NCBI GenBank assembly: GCA_965205485.1
Contig: OZ242180.1
Coordinates: 923,016 to 987,015, forward strand
Direction: 5' to 3'
DNA from: Candidatus Latescibacterota bacterium
Lineage (GTDB): Bacteria > Latescibacterota > UBA2968 > GCA-2709665
Length of the DNA stretch: 64,000 bases
The translations under genes and the position numbers were made by a program. Numbering within the stretch: the stretch's first letter is position 1; every line of letters begins with the position of its first letter. Positions 10,453 to 31,997 of this stretch are shown piece by piece. The notes under the pieces are model-generated. The model worked only from the letters and a program-made list of their open reading frames with translations, was not told the DNA's origin and did not search any database.

Positions 10453-12432
10453 TCAGTAATTATGCACGCCGTGCCCCTGGCCCGGAAACCAGATCGCGTC
10501 AACGAGGAAGGAGAGTGTGATGGCCAGCACATAGCCGGTCAGGAGTCCCAGAAAGGCCGGCTGCCATTTTCTGTAGAGATTGACGCCGCCAACCTTGAGC
10601 AGGATGGCCTTGATCGCCCAGACGACGAAGATCGAAAAGAACGTGAGTTGGGTGTTCCATGAGAAGGCAATGGGAAATGCGATGGGGTGAAACGGCCACC
10701 ATGGCAGCCGGTAGTGCAGAAAGGTCAGCAGTGACATCGCGGCGGCGCCCACGCAGAACACGGCCAGACGCTCCCAACTGGTATCGAAGGGGCTTCTCAT
10801 CTGGGTAACGGTGAGGTCGTACGCGAAGCGTCCGGCGCTGGAGAAGGGCCAGGCGTTGAAATTGAAAGCGCCGGTCCGATAGCCCAGGAAGATGGTGAGG
10901 GCGAAGTCGGCCGCGAGGCCCACGACCACGACCAGTGCCAGGGCAGGCACAAGCCGCCGCCGGTTCCGGCGGATGAGGTCCGCGAGTCGGACCACGTGCA
11001 TGAAGGGCGCCATAAAGGTGCCCTTGCCCTGGCAGACGAGGCTGTACGTGAGGCTGATGCCGGACATGCTCGAGGGCGAAAGCGCACTGGTGCCGATCGT
11101 GTACAGGGCGGCGTACTGTTCGGTCAATGTAGTACGCATATAGGCCAGACCCGTCTCGCAGACGATTCGGGCGATGGATAGGTAGTTGACGATCAGGGCG
11201 GGCACGAGAAGCGCGACGAGTTTCCCCTGCATGCCCAGTTGGGAAAAGAAGGCGCAGACAAAGCTGAGGCTGCCGATGAGTCCGAACACGGCAAACCGGT
11301 ACGAGAGCAGTTCACCGGCGTCGTCGGCGTCCCCTTTCCCGAATGCCCTGGCGAAGACGGCCCTGATGTGGGTGCGGGCGGTCCAGAGATTCCACAGCAC
11401 CAGCACGGTCAGCGCGCCGAATCCCTGCCAGGCCGTGACCTCGGTTTCGGCGGAAAAGTTGAGCGGCTTGCGCGGGATCACGTATCCGATGCGGTTGATG
11501 ATGCCGTTTTCGAACCAGAAAAACAGCACGAAGAAGACCCAGATAGAGAACAGGATATTCAGGTTGGCGAAGTACGCGAATCCCGCTGTCAGAAAGTTGA
11601 TGCGGGTGTTGACCCGAGGAAAGCCTTTTGCAAAGACGACCCACTTGCCCTGCAAGGGGATCTTGGGCACGACCGGCCAGAAATAGTTGAGGATATTCCA
11701 GGAAATGGCGCCGAATCCCACGCCGAAACCGCCCCAGAAAAGCCCCCCACGAAGGGCATCCGGAAGAAAACCGCCACGGCTCCCGCGCGTGAGGGTAGCC
11801 CCCACGGATGCAAGCGGAAAGACCAGGCGCTCGTTCCGCACCCACTGCTTGCGGAGGATTACCGAGATACAGAACAGGAGCGTGCATAGGGCCAACAGGA
11901 AGAAGATCCAACTGATCAAAGGAGCAATCCAGGCGTGATAAGGCGCCTGCTGCCCCTCGGGCAGCCCCTCGTAGAACCATTTCATCGCGTGATTCTCGTT
12001 CGAGGGCACAGCCCACTCGGGAATATTTGGATGGAGATAGTTGGCCCACTGATTCTCAGGCGTGGCGAAATAGTAGACGCCGGAGAGAATGCCCAGAAGA
12101 AAGCCCGTGATGCCCGACGTCGGTACCACGGCGCCGACGAACCCCATCGCCAGGATGGTGAGCAGTTCGGACGACTGCAGGGCGCTGTGCGGACGGAGGC
12201 GGCGGACGAAGCCGTTGACGATGACCAGCACGAGGAAGGCGGCGAAGAGGGCGAGGGGGAAAAAGGAGAGCTGCATCCGCGAGGCGTGGATGACGTATTC
12301 GGTGGTTGAAATCCAGAAATTCACGACGAGCACGAGCAGCAGGCCGATGCCGACGGCGCGAAGCGTCACCGCGTCGGTCTTCAGTGCCGTTTGGGATTCG
12401 GACTCCGCTCGAGTTGCGGAACTCTGCGCCAT
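10453..12432 (-). CDS. large polytopic membrane protein of unknown family (M1; paralogue of 27922-29892 and 30012-31997)
   Basis: 659 aa with about 12 or more hydrophobic segments. Conserved block ATPENQW...P(S)N...FEGLP and a C-terminal FPGQGHGVH shared with the two paralogues. Confidence 0.7.
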   Translation of the reverse strand: MAQSSATRAESESQTALKTDAVTLRAVGIGLLLVLVVNFWISTTEYVIHASRMQLSFFPLALFAAFLVLVIVNGFVRRLRPHSALQSSELLTILAMGFVGAVVPTSGITGFLLGILSGVYYFATPENQWANYLHPNIPEWAVPSNENHAMKWFYEGLPEGQQAPYHAWIAPLISWIFFLLALCTLLFCISVILRKQWVRNERLVFPLASVGATLTRGSRGGFLPDALRGGLFWGGFGVGFGAISWNILNYFWPVVPKIPLQGKWVVFAKGFPRVNTRINFLTAGFAYFANLNILFSIWVFFVLFFWFENGIINRIGYVIPRKPLNFSAETEVTAWQGFGALTVLVLWNLWTARTHIRAVFARAFGKGDADDAGELLSYRFAVFGLIGSLSFVCAFFSQLGMQGKLVALLVPALIVNYLSIARIVCETGLAYMRTTLTEQYAALYTIGTSALSPSSMSGISLTYSLVCQGKGTFMAPFMHVVRLADLIRRNRRRLVPALALVVVVGLAADFALTIFLGYRTGAFNFNAWPFSSAGRFAYDLTVTQMRSPFDTSWERLAVFCVGAAAMSLLTFLHYRLPWWPFHPIAFPIAFSWNTQLTFFSIFVVWAIKAILLKVGGVNLYRKWQPAFLGLLTGYVLAITLSFLVDAIWFPGQGHGVHNY

Positions 12433-12462
12433 CTTTCCCTTTCAGTGGATCCCACCGCAAGA

Positions 12463-12487
12463 GGACGGGCGCCCACAAGGGACGCCC
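12463..12487. repeat. 25-bp exact repeat CGGGCGCCCACAAGGGACGCCCCTAC (second copy at 56527-56551)
   Basis: Identical string at two intergenic sites. Contains a GGGCG/CGCCC stem-forming inverted repeat. Confidence 0.5.
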
Positions 12488-12604
12488 CTACGATGCGAGG
12501 TAGTGGGAATTTTCACCAATACATAGAATCGAGAGCATATATTCTGCTCCCGCCTTTACCCTGTTTATCCTGTCCAACCCTGTTTGTCTCGTCTTCTAAA
12601 TTGC

Positions 12605-13573
12605 CTAAGTATCCTCCGGTTCCTTCAGCTTCCAGCCCGGATTCGTGCCGCCCTGCATGTCTGGCGGAAGGGGTTCCGCCAGATTGCCGTAGAGGCCGGG
12701 GCGGCGCGCGCGCAGATAGCGGTACCCGGAGGAGACCGGTATCTTATCGGGCGTGAGCAACCCCACCACGACGTCGTCCTCCAGCGCCTCCGACTCGACC
12801 AGGACTTCGCCGAACGGGTCCAGGATCATCGCATTGCCATTCTTGACGGTATCGTGATCCACGCCTATGGGATTCGTATAAACGGCGTAGACGCCGTTCT
12901 CATAGGCGCGCGCCGGCAGCCAGCGCATGAGCCAGCCACGACCCTTCGGTCCGTTAAATTCCTGCCGGAGCGATACCGGGTCGCGATGACGGTTCTCCCA
13001 GAGGGCGCGGTCGATGACGCCCCGGCCGGGCATGGCGGAGGGCAACCCGCAGGTAACGTGAGGCATGAAGATGATTTCCGCGCCCATCATCGCCGTCAGG
13101 CGCACGTTTTCAGGCAGGTTGTTGTCGTAGCAGATCAGGATGCCCAACCGGCAGCCGCGGAGGTCGAAGACGGTGAACGCGTCGCCGGAGTCGATGAACT
13201 TGCTGATGAAGGCGTGCAGCTTGCGATGCTTCGCGACGTAGCCCTCCGGACCCACGGCGACATAGGTGTTGTAGAGTGCATCGCGTTCCGCTTCCACAAG
13301 GCCGGCCAGTACGGCGACGTTGTATTCCCTTGCGATGTCGATAAGGCGATTCGTGGATGGACCGCCCGGAACGGGCTCGGCCAGTTCGGCGATCAGGGAA
13401 CGTGGGAGGGTCTGCAGAAAAGTGTAGCCCGGAATGCAGCATTCGTGGAAGGAGACGATTTCGGCGCCCGCGTCGACGGCCCGCCTCGTAAGGGCGTCGA
13501 TGCGGGAGAGGTTGTAGGGTTTGTCGGCATCCCGCGCTTCGAACTGTGCGGCGCCGACTCTGATGTCGCGCAT
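12605..13573 (-). CDS. carbon-nitrogen hydrolase (nitrilase superfamily)
   Basis: Catalytic triad context E (SFHECC), K (KHRKLH), C (ILICYD). 322 aa. Confidence 0.8.
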   Translation of the reverse strand: MRDIRVGAAQFEARDADKPYNLSRIDALTRRAVDAGAEIVSFHECCIPGYTFLQTLPRSLIAELAEPVPGGPSTNRLIDIAREYNVAVLAGLVEAERDALYNTYVAVGPEGYVAKHRKLHAFISKFIDSGDAFTVFDLRGCRLGILICYDNNLPENVRLTAMMGAEIIFMPHVTCGLPSAMPGRGVIDRALWENRHRDPVSLRQEFNGPKGRGWLMRWLPARAYENGVYAVYTNPIGVDHDTVKNGNAMILDPFGEVLVESEALEDDVVVGLLTPDKIPVSSGYRYLRARRPGLYGNLAEPLPPDMQGGTNPGWKLKEPEDT

Positions 13574-13664
13574 GAAATTCCGATCTTGCCGTCCGCGATC
13601 GGGCTGAAGGCAATCTAAAGGACTGGACTTCTCGGGCGTCTCCGCGGGAATTGGGGAAAGGACG

Positions 13665-14606
13665 TCAGGCCGTTCCGTCCACCAGCCCCTTCATGTAGCC
13701 GATGGCGTAGAGCCTTCCCATCAGGGTGTAGCCCGGCGGGTCGTTGGCTTCGCCGGAAAGCACCGGGACGTGGTCCGGCCGTATGGGTCCGGTGAAACCG
13801 ATGTCCCGGTACGCCCGGATGCACTCGGCCATGTCCGTGTCGCCCTCGTCATGGAAGGTCTCCTCGAAGCTGGGTACGGTTCCTCTCACGTCGCGGAAGT
13901 GGGAGAAATGGATCCTGTCCCCGAACCGGCGGATGGCTGCCGGCACGTCCGCGCCCATTGCTGCGAAGTTGCCCTGGCAGAAGGTAATGCCGTTGTATTC
14001 GCTGGGAACCATGTCGATGACGCGCTGGAACGCGTCTACGCTGGTGATGATGCGGCCGATTCCCCGGACGGGCGAGAGGGGCGGATCGTCAGGGTGCAGC
14101 GCCTGCCTTACGCCGGCCTCTTCGGCCACGGGAATGACACGCTCGAGAAAGTATTCCAGGGATTCCCAGAGCAGTGCTTCGCTCACTTCCCCATATTTCG
14201 TAGGGGGCGCGTCCTGCATCAGCGTGTCATCGTAACTGCTCACAAACGCATCTCCCCGGCCGCGCGTTGTGAAAGAGGTACGCATCCAGTTGAATACCGC
14301 CATCCAGTTCCAGCACATGATCCCGATACCGGCCGCGCCCAGGTTGCGGATGGTCTGGCAGTACGCGTCGATATCCGCGTCACGGCCATCCAGACCCAGC
14401 GTGATGCGGTTCGAGATCAGTACGGACTCCACCACGGACCACGTGAGACCCGCGTCCGCGATGCGTTGCTTGTGATGTACGATGGCGTCAAAGTCCCAGA
14501 TCGGCCCGCCGTTGGGAAGTGTCGTTACAAGGTCGGTCACGCCGATCTGGCGGGCGAGGGCCATCCGTTCTTCGTCGAGGGGCGACAGGACCAGTGCGAA
14601 TCTCAT
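13665..14606 (-). CDS. uxuA: mannonate dehydratase
   Basis: Blocks shared with E. coli UxuA: GLTWSVVESV, VIPVAEEAGVRQALHPDDPP, IRPDH, PPGYTLMGRL. Confidence 0.8.
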   Translation of the reverse strand: MRFALVLSPLDEERMALARQIGVTDLVTTLPNGGPIWDFDAIVHHKQRIADAGLTWSVVESVLISNRITLGLDGRDADIDAYCQTIRNLGAAGIGIMCWNWMAVFNWMRTSFTTRGRGDAFVSSYDDTLMQDAPPTKYGEVSEALLWESLEYFLERVIPVAEEAGVRQALHPDDPPLSPVRGIGRIITSVDAFQRVIDMVPSEYNGITFCQGNFAAMGADVPAAIRRFGDRIHFSHFRDVRGTVPSFEETFHDEGDTDMAECIRAYRDIGFTGPIRPDHVPVLSGEANDPPGYTLMGRLYAIGYMKGLVDGTA

Positions 14607-14976
14607 TGGATTGGTCTCCTAATCGGGTGTATGGACGGCGTGATGACATGTCGATCGTGCCACGGTTGAAAGGCCTACCAATTTATGCGATCAGGGATTG
14701 ATGCGCAAATCGAAAGGCGCCCTGAATAACGCATATCACGACAACCTGTGTACATTTAGATGCGCCCACAGCCCAACGCGTTTGGAATGCTGGGACGGAC
14801 TCAAACAGGTTCTACCCGAGGCGGTCCATACATTCCCCCCAAACGCGTTCAGTAAATACAAATGATGCCTCAGCCAAAAACAGGATTCGAGGCGTGAGGC
14901 ATCAGGTGTGCTGAGTAATAATACTTCTGTCGTAGAACGAATTGATCTGCGAGCACGTGAACGGATAGGGCTTATT

Positions 14977-15372
14977 TCAGTCCGGATCGATCTCGAATCC
15001 TTCGCTCCATCGCGCGATGCGCTGCAGAGTGATCCGGATCTTCGGCTGAATTCCGCAAATCGCACTGTGTGCGCGATTGTGTTCAGATGGAACGTGACGC
15101 ACTTCGTGACGTTCTCTTCGTACATCTGCTACTTTGAGCTCGACAATGCCGTTATCATCGGGAACTCTCGCTCGATTCTGCGACTGCCGGGGAGTTGAAT
15201 ATTTCGACCAATCTACAGACAGATAGCTACCTGCGAAGCTGAACAATCCGACCGGGAACTCGTGCGCCTTGTTTACCCTTTTTGATTTTCTGATCTCGTA
15301 GTACTTCTTCTTGTTTACGCGGTAATACAGCAAGTCGGAATTCGGTATGTACTCAATGTCCCACCTATGCAT
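14977..15372 (-). CDS. hypothetical basic (K/R-rich) protein, distal gene of a two-gene cassette in a low-GC islet
   Basis: 131 aa. Its start overlaps the stop of the upstream acidic ORF by 8 nt (ATGCATAG). Low-GC context. No recognisable domain. Confidence 0.35.
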   Translation of the reverse strand: MHRWDIEYIPNSDLLYYRVNKKKYYEIRKSKRVNKAHEFPVGLFSFAGSYLSVDWSKYSTPRQSQNRARVPDDNGIVELKVADVRRERHEVRHVPSEHNRAHSAICGIQPKIRITLQRIARWSEGFEIDPD

Positions 15373-20853: not shown

Positions 20854-23607
20854 TTACTCAACCGGTAGCTCGACCAGAACGCTCGTTTGATCCTCGGAAC
20901 TGAAGACGCGTCTCCCGTCCAGTTCGGCAAACGTCCCGCCGTGCAAGACCACCGACCCGGCACCGTCAGGTCCCCGGCGCACCAGAATGGCGAGGGCGTC
21001 CGTGGTCAGCCCGCCCGCAGTAACTGTTTCATCTCCCGTTCTGAAGACAGCCAGAGCGGATCCATCCGGGCCGCTTACCCGGATGCCGATCCCGCCATGC
21101 CCCGTCACCCGCATCGCCGTAACCGGTTCAGCCTCAGCGGAACGCAGCGGCTGAAGCAGGTGAAGGTAATGCACGCTCTCCACCGGCCCCGGCGTCGGAA
21201 ACCGCAGATAGGGCCGCCGATCCGCATCCCGTGCGGCGGGCGTGGAATCGATCCTGACGGTCGACGCATCGGGCCATAGGTGCCTGATGTGCATCCATGC
21301 CGCGCGTCCCTCGATTCTGGACGTCTCTCCGGCGACTGCCACCTTGCCGTACGGGCTCAGCAGCCGCCACTCGATCTGTCTGGGTTGCTTTCCGGCGGTT
21401 TCGATCTCATCGAACAGCACCAGGTACCGCAGGTCCGGGTCGCCCTGCGGCTTCAGGAACATCAGATGGCGGCGATAGGTATCCAGCAGGGGCCGGTACG
21501 CGTGCGCCGCCTCCCCCCTTACGTAATCGTAGTCCCTTGAGAAATAGGTCTCCTCGATCCGGCCGCTCTTCGAAATTTCCTCTGGTCCCAGCCATTGCAA
21601 TTCGTACTCACGCGGCACAGGGCTTTCCTCGTGCACCGTCGGCTGTCCCCGTCCATCCACCAGAATCGTGTTTCGCCCCGGTGTGCCCTGGTACCAGGCC
21701 GTCAGATCGTACTGCGCCTGCGTCAGCGCCGCCTCCCCCGTCTTCGGTGTCCGCGGCGGCGACAATAGACGCTCCCCGAACGCGGTGAGCGTAAACGCAT
21801 TCTTGTCCCCCTGTTCCTTACTCACTTCCGGTCCGGACGTGAACGTGACGTGTACCCCTTCCGTGTGAAGCGTGTCGTATAACTTGACCAGCCCCAGGTC
21901 CCGGAAGTGAAACCCGGCCACGTCTTTCTTCGGAGCCGCCGGCGGCAGGCTCTCGTCGTAGAACAGGAACTCCCAGGGCCCGTGGAAATAGAGCCCCGTC
22001 GCCGCCGCAACTCCCAGCGTATACGTTCCGTCCATCTCCTCAACCGCCTTGGCGATCTCGTGTTCACCTGTAAATGCGATGCCCCTCACACGCCGCCCTC
22101 CGGACATCAGCATCAGCATTGCCTGCCCGGTATCCGACCGGTACTTACGCAGGGATGCCCGGATCTGGCCGGCGCGCAAGCTGGCGAATTCGAGGGCCGT
22201 CTCCCCCCGTTCTTCCGTCAGCGCCACCGGTCCAGCCAGGCGATCCACGATGTCCCCGCCGGCGTCGAAGACCTCCATAGAAAGGACCTCGACCCGGTCG
22301 CCCTCAACCCGAAGCGTGACCCTGTCGATCCCTTCCACGCGTTCGATATTCTGCCGATCCCGCAGGAGGCCATTCACTTCGATCTGCATCCCGCCGGTCC
22401 CGGCATCCCATCGCAGGGAGACCGTATAAAGGGTTTCAGGATGGTAGTGGACTTTGTCCCGGTTATACCAGTACGCCGGGTAACCCTTCATATCGGGCCG
22501 CAGGTCGTGCTTCAGGGCCAGCCACTGAAGCGCCGGGTCCCGCAGTCTGCCGGCGTGCGCCAGAAGGCCCGCCCGATCGTTATAATGCCCGCGCGACCTG
22601 AACATCTCCATCCCGAAAATCAGAAAGTGCGACAACTGGCGCAGCGGCCCGGTATCGAACAGGTCCGGCCCTCCGTTTCGGGCAAGCGCCTCCATAAACC
22701 GACCCCCGTCGCTCAGGCAGACCCCCAGCCAGCCGCGCCCCTCCATCCGCTCTCCGTCTCTCCCATAGGCCGCCGGCAGCAGGTAATCCCGCGTGAGCAC
22801 CAGACCCATATCCAGCCAGTCCCGCGCCTCTTCGACCTCGTACAGCAGCCCCAGACCCGCCAGTCCCTCAAGCGGTATGCTCCGCCACCTGTGGTTATTC
22901 GCAAGGGACCCCCGACGCGCCGCCGGGTCCTGCGTCAGCCAGTACGCATCCTTCTCGCACAGTTTCCGCCCCTTCTCGCGCAGTCCCGCAAGCAGACGTT
23001 CGCGTTCCTCCCGGGAGAATCGACCGGGAATCCAGTCGTAGACAATCACCGCTCCCGACAGAATCATGGCCGCCTCCATATCCCAGGGATCGGCAGCCGG
23101 ACCCCAGTTCTCCCAGCCCGCGTACGCCAGCGCCCAGGCCTTGGCGCGCCTGGCGAAGACCTCCTCTCCCGTCAGCAGGTATGCGAACGCGTACAACGGG
23201 CCATAGTATTGCATCGCGTATGCGTAAGACAGAAAATCGTAGGTCGCCTTCAGAAACGACCCGTCGTAACTGCCATCGGGTAAGCGGCTGTTGGACGCTC
23301 CCGCAGGCGGGTCCTTCGGGATCGGGTTTCTCAACGTCAGCCTGGCCGCCCGGACGATTCCCTCGGCGCACTCCCGGTACGGTTCCCGCCGGGCCATTTC
23401 GCGCAGACGCGGCACGTCTTCAGCCGTGAAGAAAAGGTAGGGATGCGTGCGTTCGGCCTCCAGCAACGCCCCGCTGATCCCCCGGTTTCCCAGCAGGTCC
23501 CTGATGTTCACAGGCTCACCCCCGAAAACCGAACTCCATGAAACCGCCATTGAGGCAACGAGTGGGCAGACCCCCGCCCATTCTGGTTTCGAAATGAAAC
23601 GCATCAT
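20854..23607 (-). CDS. secreted heparinase II/III-like polysaccharide lyase family protein
   Basis: 917 aa with an N-terminal signal-like region. Alpha/alpha-toroid-like N-terminal half and a beta-sandwich C-terminal half. The family assignment rests on overall architecture and is moderately certain. Confidence 0.65.
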   Translation of the reverse strand: MMRFISKPEWAGVCPLVASMAVSWSSVFGGEPVNIRDLLGNRGISGALLEAERTHPYLFFTAEDVPRLREMARREPYRECAEGIVRAARLTLRNPIPKDPPAGASNSRLPDGSYDGSFLKATYDFLSYAYAMQYYGPLYAFAYLLTGEEVFARRAKAWALAYAGWENWGPAADPWDMEAAMILSGAVIVYDWIPGRFSREERERLLAGLREKGRKLCEKDAYWLTQDPAARRGSLANNHRWRSIPLEGLAGLGLLYEVEEARDWLDMGLVLTRDYLLPAAYGRDGERMEGRGWLGVCLSDGGRFMEALARNGGPDLFDTGPLRQLSHFLIFGMEMFRSRGHYNDRAGLLAHAGRLRDPALQWLALKHDLRPDMKGYPAYWYNRDKVHYHPETLYTVSLRWDAGTGGMQIEVNGLLRDRQNIERVEGIDRVTLRVEGDRVEVLSMEVFDAGGDIVDRLAGPVALTEERGETALEFASLRAGQIRASLRKYRSDTGQAMLMLMSGGRRVRGIAFTGEHEIAKAVEEMDGTYTLGVAAATGLYFHGPWEFLFYDESLPPAAPKKDVAGFHFRDLGLVKLYDTLHTEGVHVTFTSGPEVSKEQGDKNAFTLTAFGERLLSPPRTPKTGEAALTQAQYDLTAWYQGTPGRNTILVDGRGQPTVHEESPVPREYELQWLGPEEISKSGRIEETYFSRDYDYVRGEAAHAYRPLLDTYRRHLMFLKPQGDPDLRYLVLFDEIETAGKQPRQIEWRLLSPYGKVAVAGETSRIEGRAAWMHIRHLWPDASTVRIDSTPAARDADRRPYLRFPTPGPVESVHYLHLLQPLRSAEAEPVTAMRVTGHGGIGIRVSGPDGSALAVFRTGDETVTAGGLTTDALAILVRRGPDGAGSVVLHGGTFAELDGRRVFSSEDQTSVLVELPVE

Positions 23608-23767: not shown

Positions 23768-24902
23768 ATGGCAGCCGTAGTCCTAAAAGACGTCCGAAAG
23801 ATCTATAACGGAAACACCGTCGCGGTAGACGACTTCAGCCTTCGCGTCGAGGACGGCGAGTTCGTGGTGCTGGTGGGGCCCTCCGGATGCGGAAAATCGA
23901 CCACCCTCCGGCTGATTGCCGGCCTGGAGGAGGTGGACGGGGGCGAAATCCACATCGACGGATGCCTGACGAACGACCTTCCGCCCAAGGACAGGAATAT
24001 CGCGATGGTCTTCCAGAACTACGCCCTCTACCCCCACATGGACGCCTACCGGAATATGGCCTTCGGGCTGAAACTGAGAAAATATCCCAGGGAGGAGATC
24101 GACGACCGGGTGCGTGAGGCGGCGGACATCCTGGGAATCCGGGACCTGCTGCACCGAAAGCCGAAGGAACTCTCAGGCGGACAGCGTCAGCGGGTAGCCC
24201 TTGGCCGTGCTATCGTTCGGAAGCCGAAGGTCTTCCTATTCGACGAGCCCCTGTCCAACCTGGACGCCAGACTGCGGGTTCAGATGCGAACGGAACTCAG
24301 CAAGCTGCATGCACGGCTCAACGCGACCATGATTTACGTCACCCACGACCAGGTCGAAGCGATGACCATGGGCGACCGCCTCGTCGTCATGCAAGACGGA
24401 CGGATCCAGCAGGTCGGAGCCCCGGTCCACCTGTACCGGAGACCCGCGAACCGTTTCGTCGCCGGCTTTATCGGCAGCCCGGCAATGAATTTCCTCGAGG
24501 GCGAACTCGTCCGGGATGCCGGCCTGGCCTTCCGGGGAGACGGCCTCCGCCTCCCTGTACCGGACCGGCACCGGGACAGCCTGTCAGGATACATCGGCCG
24601 CCGCGTCATCCTTGGAATCCGCCCCGAGCACATCCACTACGCGTCTTCAGCCCTCGGACCCGGGGAGTCAGAAGACGTTTCCGCGAAGAGTCGACCTCGT
24701 CGAACCGATGGGACATGAGACCTTGCTCTACCTGACCGTCGGACGCGCCTCCTGCGTGGCCAGGGTGACCGCGGATCCCGCACCCGCGGTGGACAGCGAG
24801 GTCCGGCTCGCATTCGACCTCTCCGCCGTCCACTTCTTCGACCGGGAGACCGAAGCCGCGCTGCTCCGGATACACCCGAATAGCAAACCGACGCGGGGCT
24901 GA
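23768..24902 (+). pseudogene. sugar ABC transporter ATP-binding protein (MalK/UgpC-like), frameshifted near 24656-24665
   Basis: Walker [10 protein letters not shown], signature [10 protein letters not shown], Walker B VFLFDEP. The TOBE-domain tail ([15 protein letters not shown]) continues in the +1 frame after the homopolymer tract GGACCCGGGG. Most likely a single-base sequencing indel, otherwise a true frameshift. Confidence 0.7.
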
Positions 24903-24908
24903 AGGCGC

Positions 24909-25778
24909 TCAGGACTTCACCGCTCCCGACATCAGACCCGACGTCAACCGTTTCCTGACCAGCAGAAACAGCAGCACGGTGGGAACCGTCGCCACCACCG
25001 CGGTCGCCATCAGCAGGTTCCATTCCACCACGTTGTTCTTTTCCCACGCATAGAGCGCCATCGTGATCGGCTGCATTTCCCTCCGGGAAACGAGCACCAG
25101 CGCGAAGATGAACTCGTTCCAGGCGGTCACGAACGCAAAGATCGCGGTCGTCGCCAGCCCGGGTCCGGTCAGCGGCAGGGCGATCCTGAAGAGCATGCCC
25201 GTCCGGGACAGGCCGTCGATCATCGCGGCATCTTCCAGCTCTTCGGGAATGTGCCTGAAAAACCCCGCCAGTATCCAGATTGAAAAAGGCAGGGTAACGG
25301 CGGTATTCACCAGAATCAGGCCGCTGTAGGTGTCGAGAAGGTGGAGTGCCTTCATCACCTTGAACAGGGGAATCAGAACGATCACGGGGGAAAACATCTG
25401 CATCACGAGGATGCCCAGACCGAACACCCCGCGCCCGCGGAACCTGATGCGCGCCATCGCGTAGGCCGCCGGAGTCGCCAACGCAATGTTCAGAACCGTG
25501 GTTCCCGTGGCGATAATCATACTGTTCACCAGATGGCGCGCCATTGGAATCCGGACGAAGACGTCCACGTAATTCTGCCACGCAAACAGCCTGGGCACCA
25601 GCGTCGCCGGCGATTGGAACACTTCGCCCAGCGTCTTCAGGGAGGTCCCCGCAACCACCAGAAACGGAAACAGCGCGAAGGCGGCGACGCCCGCTATCAG
25701 GAGCGCCCGCAATACTTCGGCTGGCCGTACGCGGAACGGTCCCAACACTATACCTCCCGCCTGTAGAACACCCGCCAC
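24909..25778 (-). CDS. sugar ABC transporter permease (MalG/UgpE-like)
   Basis: EAA loop EAAMIDGLSRTGMLFRIALPL. Six TM segments. Confidence 0.8.
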   Translation of the reverse strand: MAGVLQAGGIVLGPFRVRPAEVLRALLIAGVAAFALFPFLVVAGTSLKTLGEVFQSPATLVPRLFAWQNYVDVFVRIPMARHLVNSMIIATGTTVLNIALATPAAYAMARIRFRGRGVFGLGILVMQMFSPVIVLIPLFKVMKALHLLDTYSGLILVNTAVTLPFSIWILAGFFRHIPEELEDAAMIDGLSRTGMLFRIALPLTGPGLATTAIFAFVTAWNEFIFALVLVSRREMQPITMALYAWEKNNVVEWNLLMATAVVATVPTVLLFLLVRKRLTSGLMSGAVKS

Positions 25779-26615
25779 TGAAGAAGACTGATCCCAAGCA
25801 GCAGGAAGAACGCCAGAACGGTGAGGGCGCCGGCCTGGCCGAAATTGAAATAGCCGAACGCGCGCCGGTAGATTTCGGTGACCATGATCTGGGTCTGGTT
25901 TGCCGGGCCTCCCCCCGTAATAACGTAGATGAAGACAAAGCTGTTGAAGGACCAGATCACGCTGACCAGCAGAACCGCCAGCGTAACCGGACGCAGGAGC
26001 GGCAGGGTGATATGGCGGAACTGGCGGAATTCCGTAGCCCCGTCAATCCTGGAAGCCTCGTACAGATCGCCGGGGATCGACTGCAGCGCCGACAGGAATG
26101 CGAACGTGGTGAACGGCAGGGCCGTCCACAACCGGGCAACCAGCGCACCCGGCAAAGGCCGTTGAAGCGTCCGTCAGCCACTGAACCGGCGTATCGATGA
26201 GTTGCAGGCCCAGCAGAAGCGAATTCAGGTGCCCGTACTCGCCGTTGTACATCCACTTCCAGGTGATCGCCGCCACCACCAGCGGCATGGCCCAGGCCAG
26301 GATCAGCATGCCCCGGACCCATTCGCTCAAAACCGACTCCCGGCTCAACAACAGCGCCACGCCCAGACCCAATCCCACGTTCATCGCGACCGCCAGGGCC
26401 GTCCACAAGGCCGTGTTCTTCAGCACCAGCAGAAACAGATCGTCCTGCAGGAGTCCGAGGTAATTCCCAATCCCGGCAAACGTCTCTCCCTTGTAGGACG
26501 TGTGATAGAGACTCGTCTCCATCACGTCAAGAATGGGATATCCCATAAACAGAAACAACCACACCGCCGCGGGGGCAACGTAGAGGTACGCCAGCCGTCG
26601 TTTCTCCCGCTCCAT
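25748..26615 (-). pseudogene. sugar ABC transporter permease (MalF/UgpA-like), frameshifted near 26154-26156
   Basis: The N-terminal ORF (MEREKRRLAYLYVAPAAVW...QWLTD) and the C-terminal ORF (PGALVARLWTALPF...EASRIDGATEFRQF, which carries the EAA loop) are in different frames, joined at an A/T homopolymer. A single-base indel restores a normal MalF-type protein. Confidence 0.65.
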
Positions 26616-26636
26616 GCGGCCTCCTTAAAAGCTGTC

Positions 26637-27903
26637 TTAAAATTCCCTGCGATCCTCGCGCGGAAGCGTCGGGTCTTCCAGTTCTCTCATCAGACGCGCA
26701 TAAACCTTGTCCAGCGCCTCACGCGGAGACGCCGTACCCGCCAGAACCATCTGAATCGCCTCTCCCCATCCATCCTGGATCTTCGTCCATTCCGGGTGCT
26801 TCGGCGTCAGTTTGATCAGGTCCGCCTGCGCCAGGTAATTCCGGATCGGCAGGGTCCTGTAATACGCGTGCTCTGACACCGTCCCGGTCACCGGCACGCC
26901 CCCGTTTTCCACGTCCATCAACTCCCGATTTTCCGGCCGCTGCGTAAAGCGGATGAAGTCATACGCCAGGTCTTTCTGCTTCGACGTGGAGAACACGGAG
27001 AGAATGTCCAGAATCAGCAGCATCTTCCGGTCCCGACCCGCCGGCGTCATCAGCGGCTCGCACGCGACTCCGGCATCCCTGCAGCGCCCGTACTGCCAGG
27101 GTCCGCTGAACGTGAGACCTGCCTTTCCCGCATCCATGACCGCATAGCAGTCATCCGCGTTCAGATTCAGGATGCCCGGCGGCATGGCCCTGTCCACGAG
27201 GTGCAGATCCGTGAGAAACGTCACGTACGCCACCGCCTCGGCGCTGTTGATGGCAAGCCGGCCGTCGCCGTCGAAGAAGTCGGCGCCGAAGCCCCACATC
27301 ATCGCGATCTGTTCCTGCATCAGGTGTTTCGGCCTTCCCGCTCCCACACAGATCCCGTAGCGTTCGGGCGGGCTGTTCAGCTTGATTGCCAGGTCCCGGA
27401 CCGCCTCCCACGTTTCGGGGTGTCCGCTTATCCCTTCCTCTTCCATCCAGTCCCTGCGCGCGTAGAGAACCCGGTTGGCGCCCCACAGCGGCACCCCGTA
27501 CGTCTTTCCCCTGTATTCGCCCGCGCTCAGAGCCGTGGAAATCCACGCGTTGCGTTCGTCAGCCGACATGTAGTCGTCCAGAGGCTCCAGCACCCCGCGC
27601 TCCGCGTACTCCGAAATCATCCCCATGAACAGATACCCGAGGTCCGGAAGCGTTCCTCCCTGTATCATGGTATTGTAGACCGTCGGACCCTGATCGTACG
27701 GGATGAACCTCTGCTCGATCCGCACGCCCGGATGTTCCGCTTCGAATCCCTCCTTCCACGCCCGGAACGCTTCCCGTTGCGGGCCCATCCAGGCGATTCT
27801 GAGCGTCGTCTTCTCACCGGGCGATCCATCGTCGGACCCGCCGCAGGCGGCAAGCGCGTAAACGAATAACCAGCCCACCGATAGCCATCGACCCATCTGC
27901 ATG
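26637..27903 (-). CDS. extracellular solute-binding lipoprotein, family 1 (sugar ABC substrate-binding protein)
   Basis: Lipobox LAACGG. ATG at 27903 has an AGGAGAAG Shine-Dalgarno. Sequence features are typical of a family-1 sugar-binding SBP. Confidence 0.8.
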
Positions 27904-27921
27904 TTACGCTTCTCCTGTCTT

Positions 27922-29892
27922 TCAATACGCATGTACACCGTGCCCCTCACCGCCGAACCAGGTGATGTCCAGCACGAACGAAACCCCGACGTTTAGCGCA
28001 TATCCGACCATCAGTCCCAGGAAAAAGGGAATGGAACGCCGGTAGAGAAAAACGCCGCCCGCCTTCAGCACGATCGCCTTTACCGACCAGGCGAGAAACA
28101 CCGACAGCACCGAATGCACCGTCATTCCCGACCAGGTAACGGCCAGGCCCAGCGGGTGCAGCGGCCACCAGGGTACCCGGTAACGCAGAAACGTCAGCGC
28201 GAGCATAGCGATGCAGCCGGCGCCGAAATACCCGAAAACCTCCGGCTTTACCGGATCCGGGCTGGACATCATGCTCACGAATGAATTAAAGGTTGGAACC
28301 GTCCGCCGGAGCAGGGCGATGCTCCCGAAATTGTACGCGCCGATCGTATAACCCCAGTAGAGCGTCAGGCCGACCGCCGTCGCCACGGCCCCGACCAGGC
28401 CCAGCGCGACGGCAAGGCCCAGCCTCCGCCGGTTTCCCCCGATCAGGTCGCCGATCTTCGCCACGTGCGCCAGAGCGGGCATGAAGAGCCCGCGGCCGTC
28501 GTTGCGCAGGGCGAAGGTAAAGGCGAGCGCCGTCATCGCGCGCCCGGGAATCGCGGCCGGGCCGACGGTGCGCAGGATGGCGGTCTGCGGGAACATGGGC
28601 GAGCTGACGTACAGCAGGCCGGACTGCGCCACCACCCGCGCGATGCCCAGGTAGGTAATGAAAAAGAGAAGCACCAGTACCGTAGAAAGGAGCAGTCCCA
28701 TGCCCGAATTGTAGAACCAGGCGATGATGAAAACCAGACTCAACGCCGCGCCGCTCACGGCCGTCCGGTAGGACAGGATCTCATCGGCATCGTCGCCGGA
28801 CGGACGGAGCGCACCTCTGAGGACCTGTCGCAGGTGTTTCCGGGCGGTCCACAGCCCCCACACCACCAGCGTACACAACGCGCCGATGCTCTGCCACGAC
28901 ACGGCCGCCCCGCCCGAGATCCCGCCAACGCCCAGCCTCCCGAAGGCGAATACCTCCCACATCGCCATGAAGTGGAAGAACCAGATGCTGAAGAGCACGT
29001 CCAGATTGGCCAGATACGCGAAGCCGATCGTATAGAAATTGATGGTCGTGTGGAGCGGCGGGAATCCCTTGAAGAAGGTCGTCCATCGCGACGGGATGCC
29101 GAGCGGAATCTCGGGAAACCCCGGCGCGAAGTGCGACATCATGTTCCAGGTCATCACCAGGGTGGCGGCCCCGAATCCGAACTTGAACGCGCGGGTGCGC
29201 ATGAAACCCGGAAACAGGACTCCGTCCCGCACATCTCCGGCCATGTCCGCGGCCACCTGCGCGAGCGGGTACACCAGGCGTTCGTACTCCACCCACTGCC
29301 GGCGCAGAATCACCATCATACACATCGAAGCAAAGGCGAAAGCGCCCACGAGGGCCATCCACCAGCTCAGCGGTCCGGCCCAGGCGCCCACGGGTATCGG
29401 AGCATCCTTCGAGGGGAGGCCTTCGAACAGCATCCTCATGGTGCCGCCGCGGTTCGAAGGTGCGATCCAGTCCGGCATATGGATATGAAAAAAGGCGCTC
29501 CACTGGTTTTCCGGGGTTGCCAGGTAGTACGGAACCGAGATCGTTCCCAGGAGCGTGGTCATCAGACTGAATCCGGGTATCATCGCACCGGTCAGGCCCA
29601 TCGCGACCACCACCAGAATCTCCGACCGGGACAGCCCCCAGCCGTGCCGCAGCGCCCTGAGCGCGGGATTGACGAACAGCGCCAGGAGCATGAACGGCAC
29701 GAACAGCCCCATCGGAAAGTGCGTCACCTGCAGCCAGGAAGCCCGGATCAGATAGAGCGAGTAGAGGATCCAGAAGTTGACGAAGACCACCATCAACAGA
29801 CCGATCCCGACGGACCTCGCCGTGACTCCGCTTCGCATATCCCGAGGGGCTTCTTTCAGTGGCACCGCGGTTTGTATTTGCGATGATTCCAT
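27922..29892 (-). CDS. large polytopic membrane protein of unknown family (M2)
   Basis: 656 aa. Block YYLATPENQWSAFFHIHMPDWIAPSN...FEGLP. C-terminus FGGEGHGVHAY. Paralogue of M1 and M3. Confidence 0.7.
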   Translation of the reverse strand: MESSQIQTAVPLKEAPRDMRSGVTARSVGIGLLMVVFVNFWILYSLYLIRASWLQVTHFPMGLFVPFMLLALFVNPALRALRHGWGLSRSEILVVVAMGLTGAMIPGFSLMTTLLGTISVPYYLATPENQWSAFFHIHMPDWIAPSNRGGTMRMLFEGLPSKDAPIPVGAWAGPLSWWMALVGAFAFASMCMMVILRRQWVEYERLVYPLAQVAADMAGDVRDGVLFPGFMRTRAFKFGFGAATLVMTWNMMSHFAPGFPEIPLGIPSRWTTFFKGFPPLHTTINFYTIGFAYLANLDVLFSIWFFHFMAMWEVFAFGRLGVGGISGGAAVSWQSIGALCTLVVWGLWTARKHLRQVLRGALRPSGDDADEILSYRTAVSGAALSLVFIIAWFYNSGMGLLLSTVLVLLFFITYLGIARVVAQSGLLYVSSPMFPQTAILRTVGPAAIPGRAMTALAFTFALRNDGRGLFMPALAHVAKIGDLIGGNRRRLGLAVALGLVGAVATAVGLTLYWGYTIGAYNFGSIALLRRTVPTFNSFVSMMSSPDPVKPEVFGYFGAGCIAMLALTFLRYRVPWWPLHPLGLAVTWSGMTVHSVLSVFLAWSVKAIVLKAGGVFLYRRSIPFFLGLMVGYALNVGVSFVLDITWFGGEGHGVHAY

Positions 29893-30011
29893 GAATATCG
29901 TACCGAGCCTATCTCAGTCGGAAGATTCCGCAGTGGGTGTCACTGCGTTCCGCACGCGGGGCGGCGGAACATCGGCAGGATCTGCCAGGGGAACTTGGCG
30001 AACGTTGCCAA

Positions 30012-31997
30012 CTACCACCAGTGCACCTGGTGTCCCTGCCCGGGAAACCAGATGGCATCGACGGTAAAGGCCAACACAACGCCCGCCGTGTATCCCACCA
30101 GCAGACCCAGGAACAAGGGCTTGGACCGGCGGTAGAGGGCGACACCGCCTACACGCATGACAACCGCTTTGGCAGCCCACGCCATGAATACCGGCATCGC
30201 CAGGCTGTATACGTTGTCCGCGGCGGCCACGGCCAGCCCGATGGGGTGGATCGGCCACCAGGAAAAGCGATACCGCAGGAACGTGAGTACCGCCATCAGA
30301 CCCGCGCCGATCCCGAAGAACAACACCCGGCTCAACTCGGGCGCACCCGGCGTACGCATCTGTCCCAGGGTGGTGGAGAAGACCGCCTTGGGATTCCCGT
30401 TGAAGAACAGCCGGGAGAAGTTGTAGGCGCCGTGCGTATGGCCCAGATGAAGCGTAAACCAGATTGATGAGACGAGCCCCGCGAAGACGCCCACCGTGAC
30501 GCACAACAGCAGGAGGCGCCGGTTTCCGCGGATCCGGTCCGCCAGGCGCACGGCCTGCGCCAGCCCGGGCGTGAAGAGTCCCCGCATATAGTCGATCAGC
30601 GCGTAGGAAAGCGCGATGGACGTCAGACACGCGCCGGAGAGTCCGTAGGTGCCCCGCAGGTCCATCACGAAGGCCTGCGGCGTCACCGTACCCTGCGCGT
30701 ACGCCACACCGGCCTCGGACACGACCCGGGCCAGTCCGATATAGATGATGCCCAGCGCGAACAGGAACATCGCCGCCGAAATCGCGTCCATGCCGGATCG
30801 ATGGAGCCAGAACAGCGTGAAAATTACGCTCAGCAGCAGGCCCAGGACCGATGCCCGGTACGACAGGACCTCCCTGCCGTCGTCCAGCGGATGGTCCGGC
30901 CGCAGCGCCTTGAGGAACACTCCCCTCAGGTGGGTTCGGGCGACCCACAGGCGCCACGCGACGAGGCATGCAAGCGCGCCGAAGCACTGCCACGCCTCGG
31001 TGGGCGGATCCGCGCTGAAGGTATCCGTGGACCGTTCGATCTGGTACCCGAGCCGGTTGAAGATGCCCCCCTCAACCACGTGTACCAGGAAGAAGAACCA
31101 GATGCTGAACAGCACCTGCAGGTTGGCGAAATACGCGAACCCGATGGTGTAGAACTGCAGGGGCTGGATATAGACGCCTGGAGAGTAGCGCGTAAAGCGG
31201 AAGTAGCCCGCGTGGGGAAAGAACCGGATGCCGGGCATCCCGTGGAAGAACCAGGATGTGGCGTGCCAGGCGAACAGCGCAAATGCGAATACGGCGCCGA
31301 ACCAGAAGAGCCGGCCCTTCATGAAGTCCGGTAGCGTACTCCGGGACGACGCGCCTTCCGCCATTTCCATCGGCACGGCGGCAAGAGGATAGACCAGCTT
31401 CTCGTTTTCGGCCCACTGTCGTCGCAGAATGACCATCGCGCAGGCCGAACCGACCAGGAGCGCCGCGACCAGGCTGCCCCACCACGCCAGGGGCGCGAGC
31501 CACGCATTCCAGGCATCGACCCCGGCCGCGCCGCCTTCGAAGAACGCCCGAAGCGCATCTCTGTCTGACGGGACCATCCATGCCTGAAGATGCGGGTGGT
31601 AGTATTCCGCCCACCCGTTCTCCGGCGTTGCGAAGTAGATCGGGCTGCCGATCACCCCCACCAGGAACCCGGTGACACCGGACGTCGGCACCACCGAGCC
31701 CACCATCCCGATCGCCGCCACCGTCAACAGCTCGGAAGGCGACAGAACTGCGCGCGGCCTGATCCGCCGGAGCAGCGGGTTCACGCCGCCCACCAGGGCG
31801 ATGAAAATGCTCAGCAGCGTCAGCTGAAAGAAACTCAGGTTGAGCCGGGAGGAGCGTACGACTGTCTCCGCGTAGGTCACCCAGAGGTTGATCGCGACCA
31901 CGGCCAGCACGCCGATGAACACTGCCCGGAGGGTGATCCCTTCTTTTGACCTCGAGTGCTGCTCAACCGAAAGGGATTTCTCTCCGGATCGATCCAT
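30012..31997 (-). CDS. large polytopic membrane protein of unknown family (M3)
   Basis: 661 aa. Block YFATPENGWAEYYHPHLQAWMVPSD. C-terminus FPGQGHQVHWW. Paralogue of M1 and M2. Confidence 0.7.
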   Translation of the reverse strand: MDRSGEKSLSVEQHSRSKEGITLRAVFIGVLAVVAINLWVTYAETVVRSSRLNLSFFQLTLLSIFIALVGGVNPLLRRIRPRAVLSPSELLTVAAIGMVGSVVPTSGVTGFLVGVIGSPIYFATPENGWAEYYHPHLQAWMVPSDRDALRAFFEGGAAGVDAWNAWLAPLAWWGSLVAALLVGSACAMVILRRQWAENEKLVYPLAAVPMEMAEGASSRSTLPDFMKGRLFWFGAVFAFALFAWHATSWFFHGMPGIRFFPHAGYFRFTRYSPGVYIQPLQFYTIGFAYFANLQVLFSIWFFFLVHVVEGGIFNRLGYQIERSTDTFSADPPTEAWQCFGALACLVAWRLWVARTHLRGVFLKALRPDHPLDDGREVLSYRASVLGLLLSVIFTLFWLHRSGMDAISAAMFLFALGIIYIGLARVVSEAGVAYAQGTVTPQAFVMDLRGTYGLSGACLTSIALSYALIDYMRGLFTPGLAQAVRLADRIRGNRRLLLLCVTVGVFAGLVSSIWFTLHLGHTHGAYNFSRLFFNGNPKAVFSTTLGQMRTPGAPELSRVLFFGIGAGLMAVLTFLRYRFSWWPIHPIGLAVAAADNVYSLAMPVFMAWAAKAVVMRVGGVALYRRSKPLFLGLLVGYTAGVVLAFTVDAIWFPGQGHQVHWW

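Follow-up and report, generated by a model that had tools for sequence, protein, structure and literature searches.

Within a 64,000-nucleotide window (the whole stretch of DNA that was analysed) of a Candidatus Latescibacterota contig, OZ242180.1, three genes encode large membrane proteins, here called M1, M2 and M3, in a polysaccharide-related locus. Latescibacterota are an uncultured phylum regarded as polysaccharide degraders. To which family do these proteins belong, and what do they do for their host? The original prediction assigned them to an unrecognised family and left their role between exporter, importer and membrane enzyme.

Three paralogues of a catalogued Pfam family

All three open reading frames are intact, agree exactly with the coordinates first given and lie on the minus strand (Table 1). 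M2 and M3 are each 43–44% identical to M1 and 40% identical to each other, with 190 columns invariant across the three. The description of M1–M3 as paralogous polytopic membrane proteins of about 660 residues is borne out, and with Pfam E-values between 1e-106 and 1e-114 chance can be dismissed.

Table 1. Genes around M1, M2 and M3; positions are those of the window.
Feature	Position	Strand	Description	Location and evidence
TPR + GWxTD-domain protein	6033..8144	+	703 aa	Convergent with M1; TIGR04514 49.7 bits
TPR + GWxTD-domain protein	8317..10362	+	681 aa; 43%-identical paralogue of the 6033..8144 gene	Convergent with M1; TIGR04514 62.2 bits
M1	10453..12432	-	DUF6785+DUF6784 protein, 659 aa; predicted OPT-fold secondary transporter	ORF and translation; PF20581 E 6e-109, PF20580 E 1e-21
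Carbon-nitrogen hydrolase	12605..13573	-	Nitrilase superfamily	Upstream of M1, co-directional; Pfam CN_hydrolase E 1.6e-41
UxuA-like protein	13665..14606	-	Mannonate dehydratase / AP_endonuc_2 TIM-barrel protein	Upstream of M1, co-directional; Pfam UxuA E 4e-91; NCBIfam mannonate dehydratase 266 bits
Heparinase II/III-like protein	20854..23607	-	917 aa	Same locus; Pfam Hepar_II_III_C and DUF4962
ABC ATPase	23768..24718	+	MalK-type (ABC_tran + OB_MalK)	Convergent with permease genes
ABC permease 2	24909..25778	-	BPD_transp_1	Pfam E 1.9e-13
ABC permease 1	25751..26615	-	BPD_transp_1	Broken in the window by a 1-nt insertion near 26147
SBP	26637..27950	-	SBP_bac_1 solute-binding lipoprotein, CUT1-type ABC importer	Directly downstream of M2; Pfam SBP_bac_1 E 1.4e-36; lipobox in translation
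M2	27922..29892	-	DUF6785+DUF6784 protein, 656 aa; downstream member of tandem pair	Pfam E 6e-106 and 1e-19
M3	30012..31997	-	DUF6785+DUF6784 protein, 661 aa; upstream member of tandem pair	Protein chosen for structure model
Beta-helix + PKD protein	32030..34438	-	802 aa	Directly upstream of M3, 32-nt gap; Pfam Beta_helix and PKD; weak N-terminal PelN-like match
PhyH-family protein	34416..35300	-	Fe(II)/2-oxoglutarate dioxygenase	Upstream, same gene string as M3/M2; Pfam PhyH E 3e-16

The family is in fact catalogued. Each of the three proteins scores above the gathering thresholds of two Pfam HMMs, in the order DUF6785 (PF20581; 355–382 bits, cut-off 25, profile positions 1–498) and DUF6784 (PF20580; 71–78 bits, cut-off 26.4), which together cover M1–M3 over their full length (best E 1e-114). 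The same two matches are found in 50 of 50 sampled relatives. No paper in the searchable literature names either domain. With 7312 clusters at 50% identity the family is large, and it has undergone heavy amplification in Latescibacterota; among the retrieved loci, one contig (OZ253501.1) has at least six copies. At this identity level M1 belongs to cluster 16 together with loci L003, L028, L062 and L080, and the cluster of M2 contains only its syntenic relatives (L008–L015).

The conserved blocks reported earlier are present, with two amendments: the first block of M3 reads IYFATPENGW, starting with I rather than Y or F, and M1 carries YEGLP in place of FEGLP. The C-terminal block F(P/G)G(Q/E)GH(G/Q)VH is right for all three proteins, and the invariant residues of this tail are G653, G655, H656 and H659 (M3 numbering).

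Fold and profile links to the OPT/Yellow-Stripe superfamily

The structure model of M3 (pLDDT of 90.4, pTM of 0.91) displays a YS1-type fold with core and scaffold, and YS1 is its closest solved structure. YS1 was described as an elevator-like, proton-coupled protein whose unique fold combines core and scaffold domains and has no other structural homologue, and its dimer interface is formed by a C-terminal strand (PMC9691689). Barley HvYS1 (PDB ids: 7wsr and 7wst) and the plant YSL proteins (TC 2.A.67, PF03169) have a length similar to that of M1–M3 (~660–680 residues) and share with the DUF6785 family a conserved, non-helical extreme C-terminus.

Sequence profiles point in the same direction. 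A profile of 141 DUF6785 sequences is colinear over ~540 columns with two OPT alignments (probabilities of 95.4% and 94.4%, E-values of 1.9e-8 and 9.2e-8), whereas reversed and block-shuffled controls give E-values of 0.016–0.49 over at most 58 columns. This link depends on alignment depth, since a narrower profile of 50 sequences is only marginal against six OPT sequences (hhalign, 61.8%, E 7.7e-5) and insignificant against 22 (2.6%, E 0.018). Both families contain the motif L-R...(E/K)-L-x-Y-P with an R-to-P spacing of 12, such that R192, L201 and P204 of M3 align to the equally spaced R187, L196 and P199 of HvYS1.

As to differences, HvYS1/YSL and DUF6785 proteins are only ~10–14% identical, and the latter are bacterial and encoded in catabolic, TonB-receptor-linked loci instead of serving metal homeostasis. 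The G-T-A part of the OPT signature IPLR...L.YPSG(T/S)A (YPSGTATA) and the acidic residue of QDxKT, D494, are not conserved in the DUF6785 family; in a low-confidence region of the alignment, this proposed proton-site residue of HvYS1 aligns to a non-acidic residue and K496 (QDxKTG motif) to an R/K position. Conversely, DUF6785 proteins carry a conserved insertion of ~45 residues (ATPENxW ... PS(N/D) ... FEGLP ... PW) that is absent from OPT proteins. The OPT model PF03169, carried by HvYS1, its relatives and every true OPT protein, finds no match in the 50-sequence family sample even at E ≤ 10, and searches of PDB sequences with the DUF6785 profile returned no match.

Modelled fold and profile comparison thus place DUF6785/DUF6784 in the OPT/Yellow-Stripe-like superfamily (TC 2.A.67), as a remote and strongly diverged branch. 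The earlier statement that the proteins match no known transporter family no longer holds, as fold and broad profile–profile comparison tie them to OPT/YSL. The outcome named beforehand as a refutation, a clear hit to a family already characterised and of ordinary function, came about only by half: the OPT superfamily is characterised, but the DUF6785 branch lies beyond the reach of its Pfam model.

A further comparison is offered by prokaryotic proteins annotated as 'oligopeptide transporter, OPT family' (among others in Halobacterium, Legionella, Lachnospira eligens and a Pseudomonas plasmid; L083–L087), which are of similar size, belong to the same superfamily by profile comparison and, like the DUF6785 proteins, are presumably secondary importers. 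Unlike DUF6785 proteins, they bear the OPT annotation and match HvYS1 directly (tblastn, 23–29% identity). Their haloarchaeal and Lachnospira copies adjoin PqqD-family genes, not degradative or TonB-receptor modules.

A degradative locus with a complete ABC importer

M2 and M3 are a tandem pair separated by 119 nt, with the SBP gene directly downstream of M2, as originally described. They belong to a gene string in the order PhyH, beta-helix/PKD, M3, M2, SBP, permease, permease. The longest ORF of the SBP overlaps the M2 stop, and the true start of the lipoprotein (MQMGRW...LAAC) is probably near 27902, ~20 nt past that stop. Permease 1 has an extra G compared to L009 and L011, and the tblastn match of an intact 288-residue relative is split over frames -3 and -1. 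M1 adjoins both TPR/GWxTD genes, as had been noted, but is transcribed towards them rather than following them.

Besides the genes listed in Table 1, the locus holds lambda-carrageenase-like beta-propellers and an enolase-superfamily gene. The heparinase II/III-like, beta-helix/PKD, carrageenase-like, UxuA, enolase-superfamily and CUT1 ABC importer genes make the locus degradative, not biosynthetic. The beta-helix/PKD protein, whose gene is syntenic in L009–L015, is probably a secreted glycan-active protein.

This setting bears on the direction of transport. It is most improbable that M1–M3 export or flip polysaccharides or oligosaccharides, are enzymes embedded in the membrane, or serve the neighbouring ABC system as sensors or accessory subunits, even though their locus is related to polysaccharides, the M2 and SBP genes are closely coupled and the DUF6785 family is experimentally uncharacterised. 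Pfam searches of the proteins gave no match to Wzx/MOP, Wzy, GT-C or ABC membrane domains, even at E ≤ 10, and PF00528 (BPD_transp_1) is likewise unmatched in M1–M3; nor was a flippase, polymerase or GT-C fold found. The locus is catabolic and contains neither glycosyltransferases nor export machinery. The complete ABC set next to M2/M3 (SBP, two BPD_transp_1 permeases and MalK) indicates that the M proteins are not missing ABC membrane domains. Finally, 41 of 80 related loci have just one DUF6785 gene, and genes of the SBP family lie near DUF6785 genes in only 11 loci. Of the roles first offered, a transporter, specifically an importer, is therefore favoured, and the exporter and membrane enzyme are left without support.

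Neighbourhoods of relatives across genomes

The genes around 80 DUF6785 loci, which fall into 21 identity clusters, were counted; these are raw counts at DUF6785 loci only. A recurrent companion is an outer-membrane module of a TonB-dependent receptor, a ~770-residue protein and a PorV/PorQ-family barrel. At least two of its three genes lie on the DUF6785 strand, typically directly upstream, in 22 loci (7 of 21 identity clusters); no such module is found within the window. Heparinase II/III-like and GWxTD genes, whose co-occurrence was suggested at the outset as a check, do accompany the family across genomes: the former are near DUF6785 genes in 10 loci (7 identity clusters), and homologues of the latter lie within 10 kb in ~25 loci. 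FG-GAP/ASPIC or TPR-GWxTD proteins are near 10 identity clusters and GFO_IDH_MocA near 7. PhyH genes are found in 12 loci (4 identity clusters), and their combination with SBP/ABC genes recurs in an independent clade (L042, L047). A UxuA-like gene is found not only at M1 but also next to DUF6785 trios in L004 and L090.

The frequent linkage to TonB-dependent receptors raises the question of whether M1–M3 import metal chelates of the siderophore or nicotianamine type, like Yellow-Stripe proteins, downstream of these receptors as in classical iron uptake. The nearest solved structure belongs to an importer of Fe(III)-phytosiderophores, and the invariant C-terminal GxGHxVH motif is His-rich. This function is nevertheless very unlikely. 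The linked receptors, ~1020 residues long with an N-terminal CarboxypepD_reg domain and accompanied by the ~770-residue protein and PorV-like barrel, are closer to SusC-type nutrient systems than to siderophore receptors of 650–750 residues, and NCBIfam siderophore models score far below cut-offs on them. Genes for siderophore biosynthesis or ferric reductases and Fur-type genes are all absent from the neighbourhoods examined, and the presence of several paralogues per genome, in differing catabolic settings, suits a diversity of nutrients better than metal uptake.

Other neighbours point to peptides. M1–M3 could be canonical-type OPT importers of peptides (oligopeptides, gamma-glutamyl peptides, glutathione) or of glycopeptide or muropeptide fragments, their glycan-locus setting being either incidental or due to glycoprotein or proteoglycan degradation. 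This would fit the known substrates of the OPT superfamily, namely oligopeptides, glutathione and metal chelates. Folate has since been added to these (PMC12687453). A gamma-glutamyl transpeptidase gene is directly upstream of DUF6785 in four loci (L005, L006, L054, L082), with a peptidase S15 nearby; a PA + peptidase M28 + FtsX protein is encoded between two DUF6785 genes in five loci, P0209 is a fusion of a DUF6785 domain with a related protein of the MacB_PCD/FtsX type, and a peptidase M55 (D-aminopeptidase) gene overlaps the DUF6785 gene start in L088. A peptide substrate is thus possible for DUF6785 transporters, but for M1–M3 it is rather unlikely: no such peptidase genes are near any of them, their neighbours being lyase-like beta-helix, heparinase-like, UxuA-like and enolase-superfamily genes and a sugar-type SBP, and OPT proteins offer no equivalent of the conserved loop insertion or of the many invariant Trp residues.

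Proposed role

The reading that we favour, and consider likely, is that M1–M3 are OPT-superfamily inner-membrane secondary transporters that import small breakdown products, here preferably carbohydrate-derived. They would act as elevator-type, proton-coupled importers, a transport mechanism that we infer in its entirety, and would carry small products, set free as secreted enzymes encoded in the locus degrade their targets, from the periplasm to the cytoplasm. In many relatives, these products would enter through the dedicated TonB-dependent outer-membrane module. M2 and M3 would work beside the canonical CUT1 ABC importer, not in its place. The substrate is the weakest step and comes from gene context; it is most likely carbohydrate-derived, for example a uronate-containing oligosaccharide or a sugar acid. 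Because ATPENxW, PS(N/D) and FEGLP sit in the loop insertion that OPT proteins lack, this loop may define a new substrate site.

To our knowledge, the OPT superfamily has only one solved structure. The link to it would give DUF6785 a testable mechanism, that of an elevator-type proton symporter, extend the superfamily into new sequence space and possibly to a new substrate class, and fill the missing inner-membrane step of TonB-receptor-linked uptake loci in Latescibacterota. For annotation, 'hypothetical protein' could become 'OPT-superfamily transporter, DUF6785 type'. A bolder and more doubtful proposal is that DUF6785 is the first branch of the OPT/YSL fold to transport carbohydrates, with the ATPENxW/FEGLP loop as the site for oligosaccharides or sugar acids, tandem copies differing in specificity, and the family as a whole serving as the dedicated inner-membrane partner of an undescribed PUL-like outer-membrane module (TonB receptor, ~770-residue surface protein, PorV-like barrel) in Latescibacterota and related phyla.

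The polysaccharide utilisation loci of Bacteroidota, in which SusC/SusD are followed by a permease of the MFS or a similar type, are a functional analogue only. Both kinds of loci place an inner-membrane permease gene in an operon-like string with genes of a TonB-dependent receptor, a surface protein and degradative enzymes. The permeases are unrelated, that of the Latescibacterota loci having an OPT-like rather than an MFS fold, and where Bacteroidota have SusD, the outer-membrane partners of DUF6785 are the ~770-residue protein, which has no Pfam match, and the PorV/PorQ-family barrel.

The three ~660-residue polytopic membrane proteins are members of the DUF6785/DUF6784 family

The ORFs of M1, M2 and M3 lie exactly where the original prediction had placed them, and all three are encoded on the minus strand. 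Their sequences show them to be clear paralogues. Identity to M1 is 43% for M2 and 44% for M3, that between M2 and M3 is 40%, and 190 columns are invariant across all three. The conserved blocks quoted for them are present with two small deviations, IYFATPENGW in M3 and YEGLP in M1. The family had been called unrecognised, which did not survive the HMM search proposed as a check: all three have a match to Pfam DUF6785 that spans the whole profile (PF20581, positions 1–498 of 498, E 6e-106 to 7e-114) and, after it, one to DUF6784 (PF20580, E about 1e-20). M1–M3 are members of a catalogued but unstudied DUF family. No NCBIfam model was found for them, and the literature searched gave no mention of DUF6785, DUF6784, their Pfam accessions or InterPro ids. 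Profile searches of PDB sequences with two family profiles and a tblastn search of plasmids with M3 returned no match.

The DUF6785 family is large: among 1.84 billion representative proteins searched with a profile, 7312 clusters match at E ≤ 1e-3, and 2675 still do so at E ≤ 1e-30. Species-representative genomes contain at least 588 confirmed relatives. Of the best 80, most belong to Latescibacterota MAGs, and some carry the label Gemmatimonadota, Planctomycetota, Desulfobacterales or Handelsmanbacteria. The closest relative among the matches listed is on contig JAPPFJ010000033.1 ('Gemmatimonadota bacterium RHO1_bin_28'), at ~94–95% nucleotide identity.

DUF6785 proteins are very probably distant members of the OPT superfamily

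The AlphaFold2 model of M3, calculated on a 50-sequence alignment, is of high confidence, with a mean pLDDT of 90.4 and a pTM of 0.91. A Foldseek search of the PDB with this model gives two significant matches, both to barley Yellow Stripe 1 (HvYS1; 7wst, E 4.5e-8, and 7wsr, E 9.7e-8; probability 1.0, TM 0.61/0.66), and no others, the rest having E ≥ 0.036. To our knowledge, HvYS1 is the sole solved member of the OPT superfamily (TC 2.A.67, Pfam PF03169). It consists of a substrate-binding core and a scaffold domain with inverted repeats, its dimer is held through the scaffold and a C-terminal strand, its mechanism is elevator-like and proton-coupled, and its authors found no structural homologue (PMC9691689).

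For sequence comparison, we assembled OPT proteins that all carry PF03169: the HvYS1 sequence from the PDB search output, five annotated prokaryotic plasmid OPT genes and further OPT proteins. The Pfam OPT model finds no match among 50 DUF6785 proteins, even at E ≤ 10. By hhalign, the 50-sequence DUF6785 profile gives 2.5% against HvYS1 alone, 61.8% (E 7.7e-5) against six OPT sequences and 2.6% against 22, which is weak, unstable and insufficient for an OPT link. A deeper profile of 141 sequences (Neff 5.5), which includes representatives of the 50%-identity clusters, aligns to the six-sequence OPT alignment with a probability of 95.4% (E 1.9e-8, 541 columns) and to the 22-sequence alignment with 94.4% (E 9.2e-8, 539 columns). 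The alignment is colinear and nearly full length, and significance is reached with this deeper profile only; reversed and block-shuffled OPT alignments used as controls give E 0.016–0.49 over at most 58 columns.

The best-conserved element common to both families is L-R-x(8)-L-x-Y-P, in which the R-to-P spacing is 12 in both (R192–P204 in M3, R187–P199 in HvYS1). Unlike the OPT proteins, DUF6785 proteins have an extra conserved loop, which holds the hallmark motifs of the original prediction: YFATPENxW, PS(N/D) and FEGLP (M3 residues ~118–165) form an insertion that aligns to gaps in the OPT proteins. An internal repeat of the N- and C-terminal halves is not detected by hhalign (E 0.062), the sole suggestive pairing being that of TxRAVxxGL with LSYRxAVxGL. 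A crude hydropathy count of at least 11 strongly hydrophobic segments adds nothing to the model.

Structure comparison with the M3 model and the alignment of the deeper profile make it very probable that M1–M3 adopt the OPT/YS1 fold and are distantly related to OPT transporters; the original prediction could match them to no known transporter family. Because of these results, DUF6785/DUF6784 is treated as one fold, not two domains, and as a remote OPT branch that fails the Pfam sequence test and passes the fold and deep-profile tests. The family is thereby newly assigned to the superfamily as a divergent variant with its own conserved loop. The assignment offers a useful lead to the function of a large family from an uncultured phylum, and the system is not of a new kind.

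M2 and M3 lie in a degradative locus with a complete ABC importer

M3 and M2 are in tandem, as predicted, with a gap of 119 nt, and the adjoining gene of the solute-binding lipoprotein (SBP) starts within ~20 nt after M2 if the lipoprotein-like start MQMGRW...LAAC is taken. On the minus strand, the order is PhyH, beta-helix/PKD, M3, M2, SBP, permease, permease, neighbouring genes overlapping or lying a short distance apart. Promoter and terminator scans gave no information on operon boundaries.

Features of the window discussed in the text
Feature	Position	Strand	Remark
M1	10453-12432	minus	659 aa
M2	27922-29892	minus	656 aa
M3	30012-31997	minus	661 aa
PhyH	34416-35300	minus	start of gene string, upstream of beta-helix/PKD
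Beta-helix/PKD protein	32030-34438	minus	between PhyH and M3
SBP_bac_1	26637-27950	minus	directly after M2
BPD_transp_1 permease, first	25751-26615	minus	after SBP
BPD_transp_1 permease, second	24909-25778	minus	end of string
MalK-type ATPase	23768-24718		convergent with permease genes
Heparinase II/III-like gene	20854-23607		same locus
Beta-propeller	16169-19843	minus
Beta-propeller	35845-39186	minus
Beta-propeller	39337-42629	minus	two overlapping ORFs
Beta-propeller	43083-46016	minus
Beta-propeller	48029-51310	minus
ABC ATPase	3470-4453	minus
~440-aa protein	2154-3470	minus
~440-aa protein	795-2117	minus
Binding-protein/superoxide dismutase ORF	46269-48245	plus	658 aa
FMN_bind protein	58437-59171
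ApbE	59293-60717
Sterol-24-C-methyltransferase-like gene	60876-61925	plus	349 aa

M2 and M3 might be taken for replacements of the ABC permeases or for SBP-dependent secondary transporters. Both roles are rejected because of the presence of the two BPD_transp_1 genes and MalK: the importer has all its own parts, and M2 and M3 are therefore no substitute for its membrane domains. The locus is degradative, not biosynthetic, because it carries five lambda-carrageenase-like/FG-GAP beta-propellers, a second heparinase-related protein, an enolase-superfamily gene and UxuA. The order beta-propeller genes, M3, M2, SBP is syntenic in eight related loci (L008–L015), and those of the eight that reach far enough also include the permeases, MalK and the heparinase-like gene.

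M1 does adjoin the two TPR/GWxTD genes beside which it had been placed, and their GWxTD domains match TIGR04514 at 50 and 62 bits. These genes are convergent with M1. Upstream of M1, and in its own direction, lie a gene of the nitrilase superfamily and one that is UxuA-like.

Tandem copies point to repeated duplication

ORFs were called in 82 related loci, DUF6785 genes were identified by HMM, and neighbours were clustered and named by Pfam and NCBIfam. A DUF6785 gene is present in 80 of the 82 loci, as one copy in 41, two in 34 and three in 5. Tandem pairs and trios usually fall inside one 50%-identity cluster (L001, L004, L017–L021, L045, L054), M2's cluster is confined to the window lineage, and M3 clusters with both pair members of L001 and L017–L021. 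Taken together, these sequence clusters point to repeated lineage-specific duplication, probably for diversified specificity, and not to an ancient two-subunit design. The pairs as ancient A/B heterodimer subunits are likewise unsupported, half of the loci (41/80) being single-copy; heterodimers are possible.

DUF6785 genes are linked to outer-membrane modules and glycan degradation

The dominant co-directional string is an OMP beta-barrel, a TonB-dependent receptor (CarboxypepD_reg and Plug, about 1020 aa), a ~770-aa protein with no Pfam or NCBIfam match, a PorV/PorQ-family barrel (165 bits) and one or two DUF6785 genes, with an optional TPR-GWxTD or FG-GAP/ASPIC gene preceding the latter. 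At least two of three module genes (receptor, ~770-aa protein, PorV/PorQ-family barrel) are on the DUF6785 strand in 22 loci, representing 7 of 21 identity clusters including that of M3. The module (small OMP barrel, receptor, ~770-aa protein, PorV/PorQ-family barrel) is widespread in Latescibacterota (L001, L002, L005–L007, L016–L021, L024, L026, L031, L033, L035, L037, L042, L047, L054, L056, L058, L061, L070) and looks like an undescribed PUL-like uptake system.

Both proposed co-occurrences are borne out, since heparinase II/III-like genes are found near 7 identity clusters (10 loci) and in ~25 loci a DUF6785 gene has a homologue of the window TPR-GWxTD proteins within 10 kb, immediately adjacent in L024, L032, L058 and L061. 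GFO_IDH_MocA is near 7 clusters, PhyH near 4 and RGL11/3-keto-disaccharide-hydrolase-like genes near 3. The DUF6785 trios of L004 and L090 are flanked by UxuA-like genes, as at M1, and the PhyH and SBP/ABC combination is seen again in L042 and L047, there with DUF6785 genes of another clade. This genomic context, with its TonB-dependent receptors and glycan degradation, is distinctive.

The behaviour of the OPT superfamily and the conserved gene order suggest that M1–M3 probably are importers, acting together with uptake modules of the outer membrane and with degradative enzymes that are secreted. The original prediction, whose observation is confirmed and whose interpretation is partly supported, had left open an exporter, an importer or a membrane enzyme; a non-import role has no positive support, and we consider it the least likely reading of all. 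By analogy only with HvYS1, import would be proton-coupled and would involve an elevator-type motion, and dimers might form via the invariant C-terminal tail. DUF6785 proteins show no obvious counterpart of Asp494, the proton site of HvYS1.

As to what M1–M3 import, gene context favours a carbohydrate-derived substrate, the weakest step of the reading; a metal chelate is very unlikely. A peptide substrate would fit several loci: gamma-glutamyl transpeptidase and peptidase S15 are directly upstream of DUF6785 in L005, L006, L054 and L082, and a peptidase M55 gene overlaps the DUF6785 start in a Handelsmanbacteria contig. Peptide-related neighbours are a minority among the contexts, and such a substrate is unlikely. 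Carbohydrate transport by DUF6785 proteins, if true, would be notable. The peptide-related minority also takes in five loci (L063, L065, L072, L074, L075) in which a ~1570-aa PA, peptidase M28 and FtsX membrane protein is encoded between two DUF6785 genes, and the 2120-aa protein P0209, which joins a related MacB_PCD/FtsX-type protein and a DUF6785/6784 domain in one chain; both suggest a physical or functional partnership.

Other features of the window

One additional G near 26147 (GCCGGGTG versus GCC-GGTG) breaks the first ABC permease gene into two frames, which makes it either a pseudogene or the product of a sequencing indel; seven close relatives have an intact copy of 288 aa. A second frameshift relative to relatives is near 40575, where overlapping ORFs of 408 and 837 aa correspond to one ~910-aa beta-propeller gene in L009 and L011. 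The five paralogous beta-propellers (~900–1220 aa) match lambda-carrageenase-like, FG-GAP or PQQ_2 models, and their N-terminal 600–800 residues have no Pfam match.

At 795-4453, an ABC ATPase is followed by two proteins with no Pfam match, which may be an uncharacterised ABC-2-type permease pair. Within a local GC dip (0.565 versus ~0.64), a single ORF encodes a Peripla_BP_6/ANF_receptor binding-protein domain and, at its C-terminal end, a Cu/Zn superoxide dismutase domain (E 3.6e-36). Finally, a methyltransferase with Sterol_MT_C (PF08498, E 7e-23) and Methyltransf_11 domains, encoded beside ApbE and an FMN_bind protein, resembles sterol-24-C-methyltransferase, although the genome is bacterial and its lineage Latescibacterota-like.
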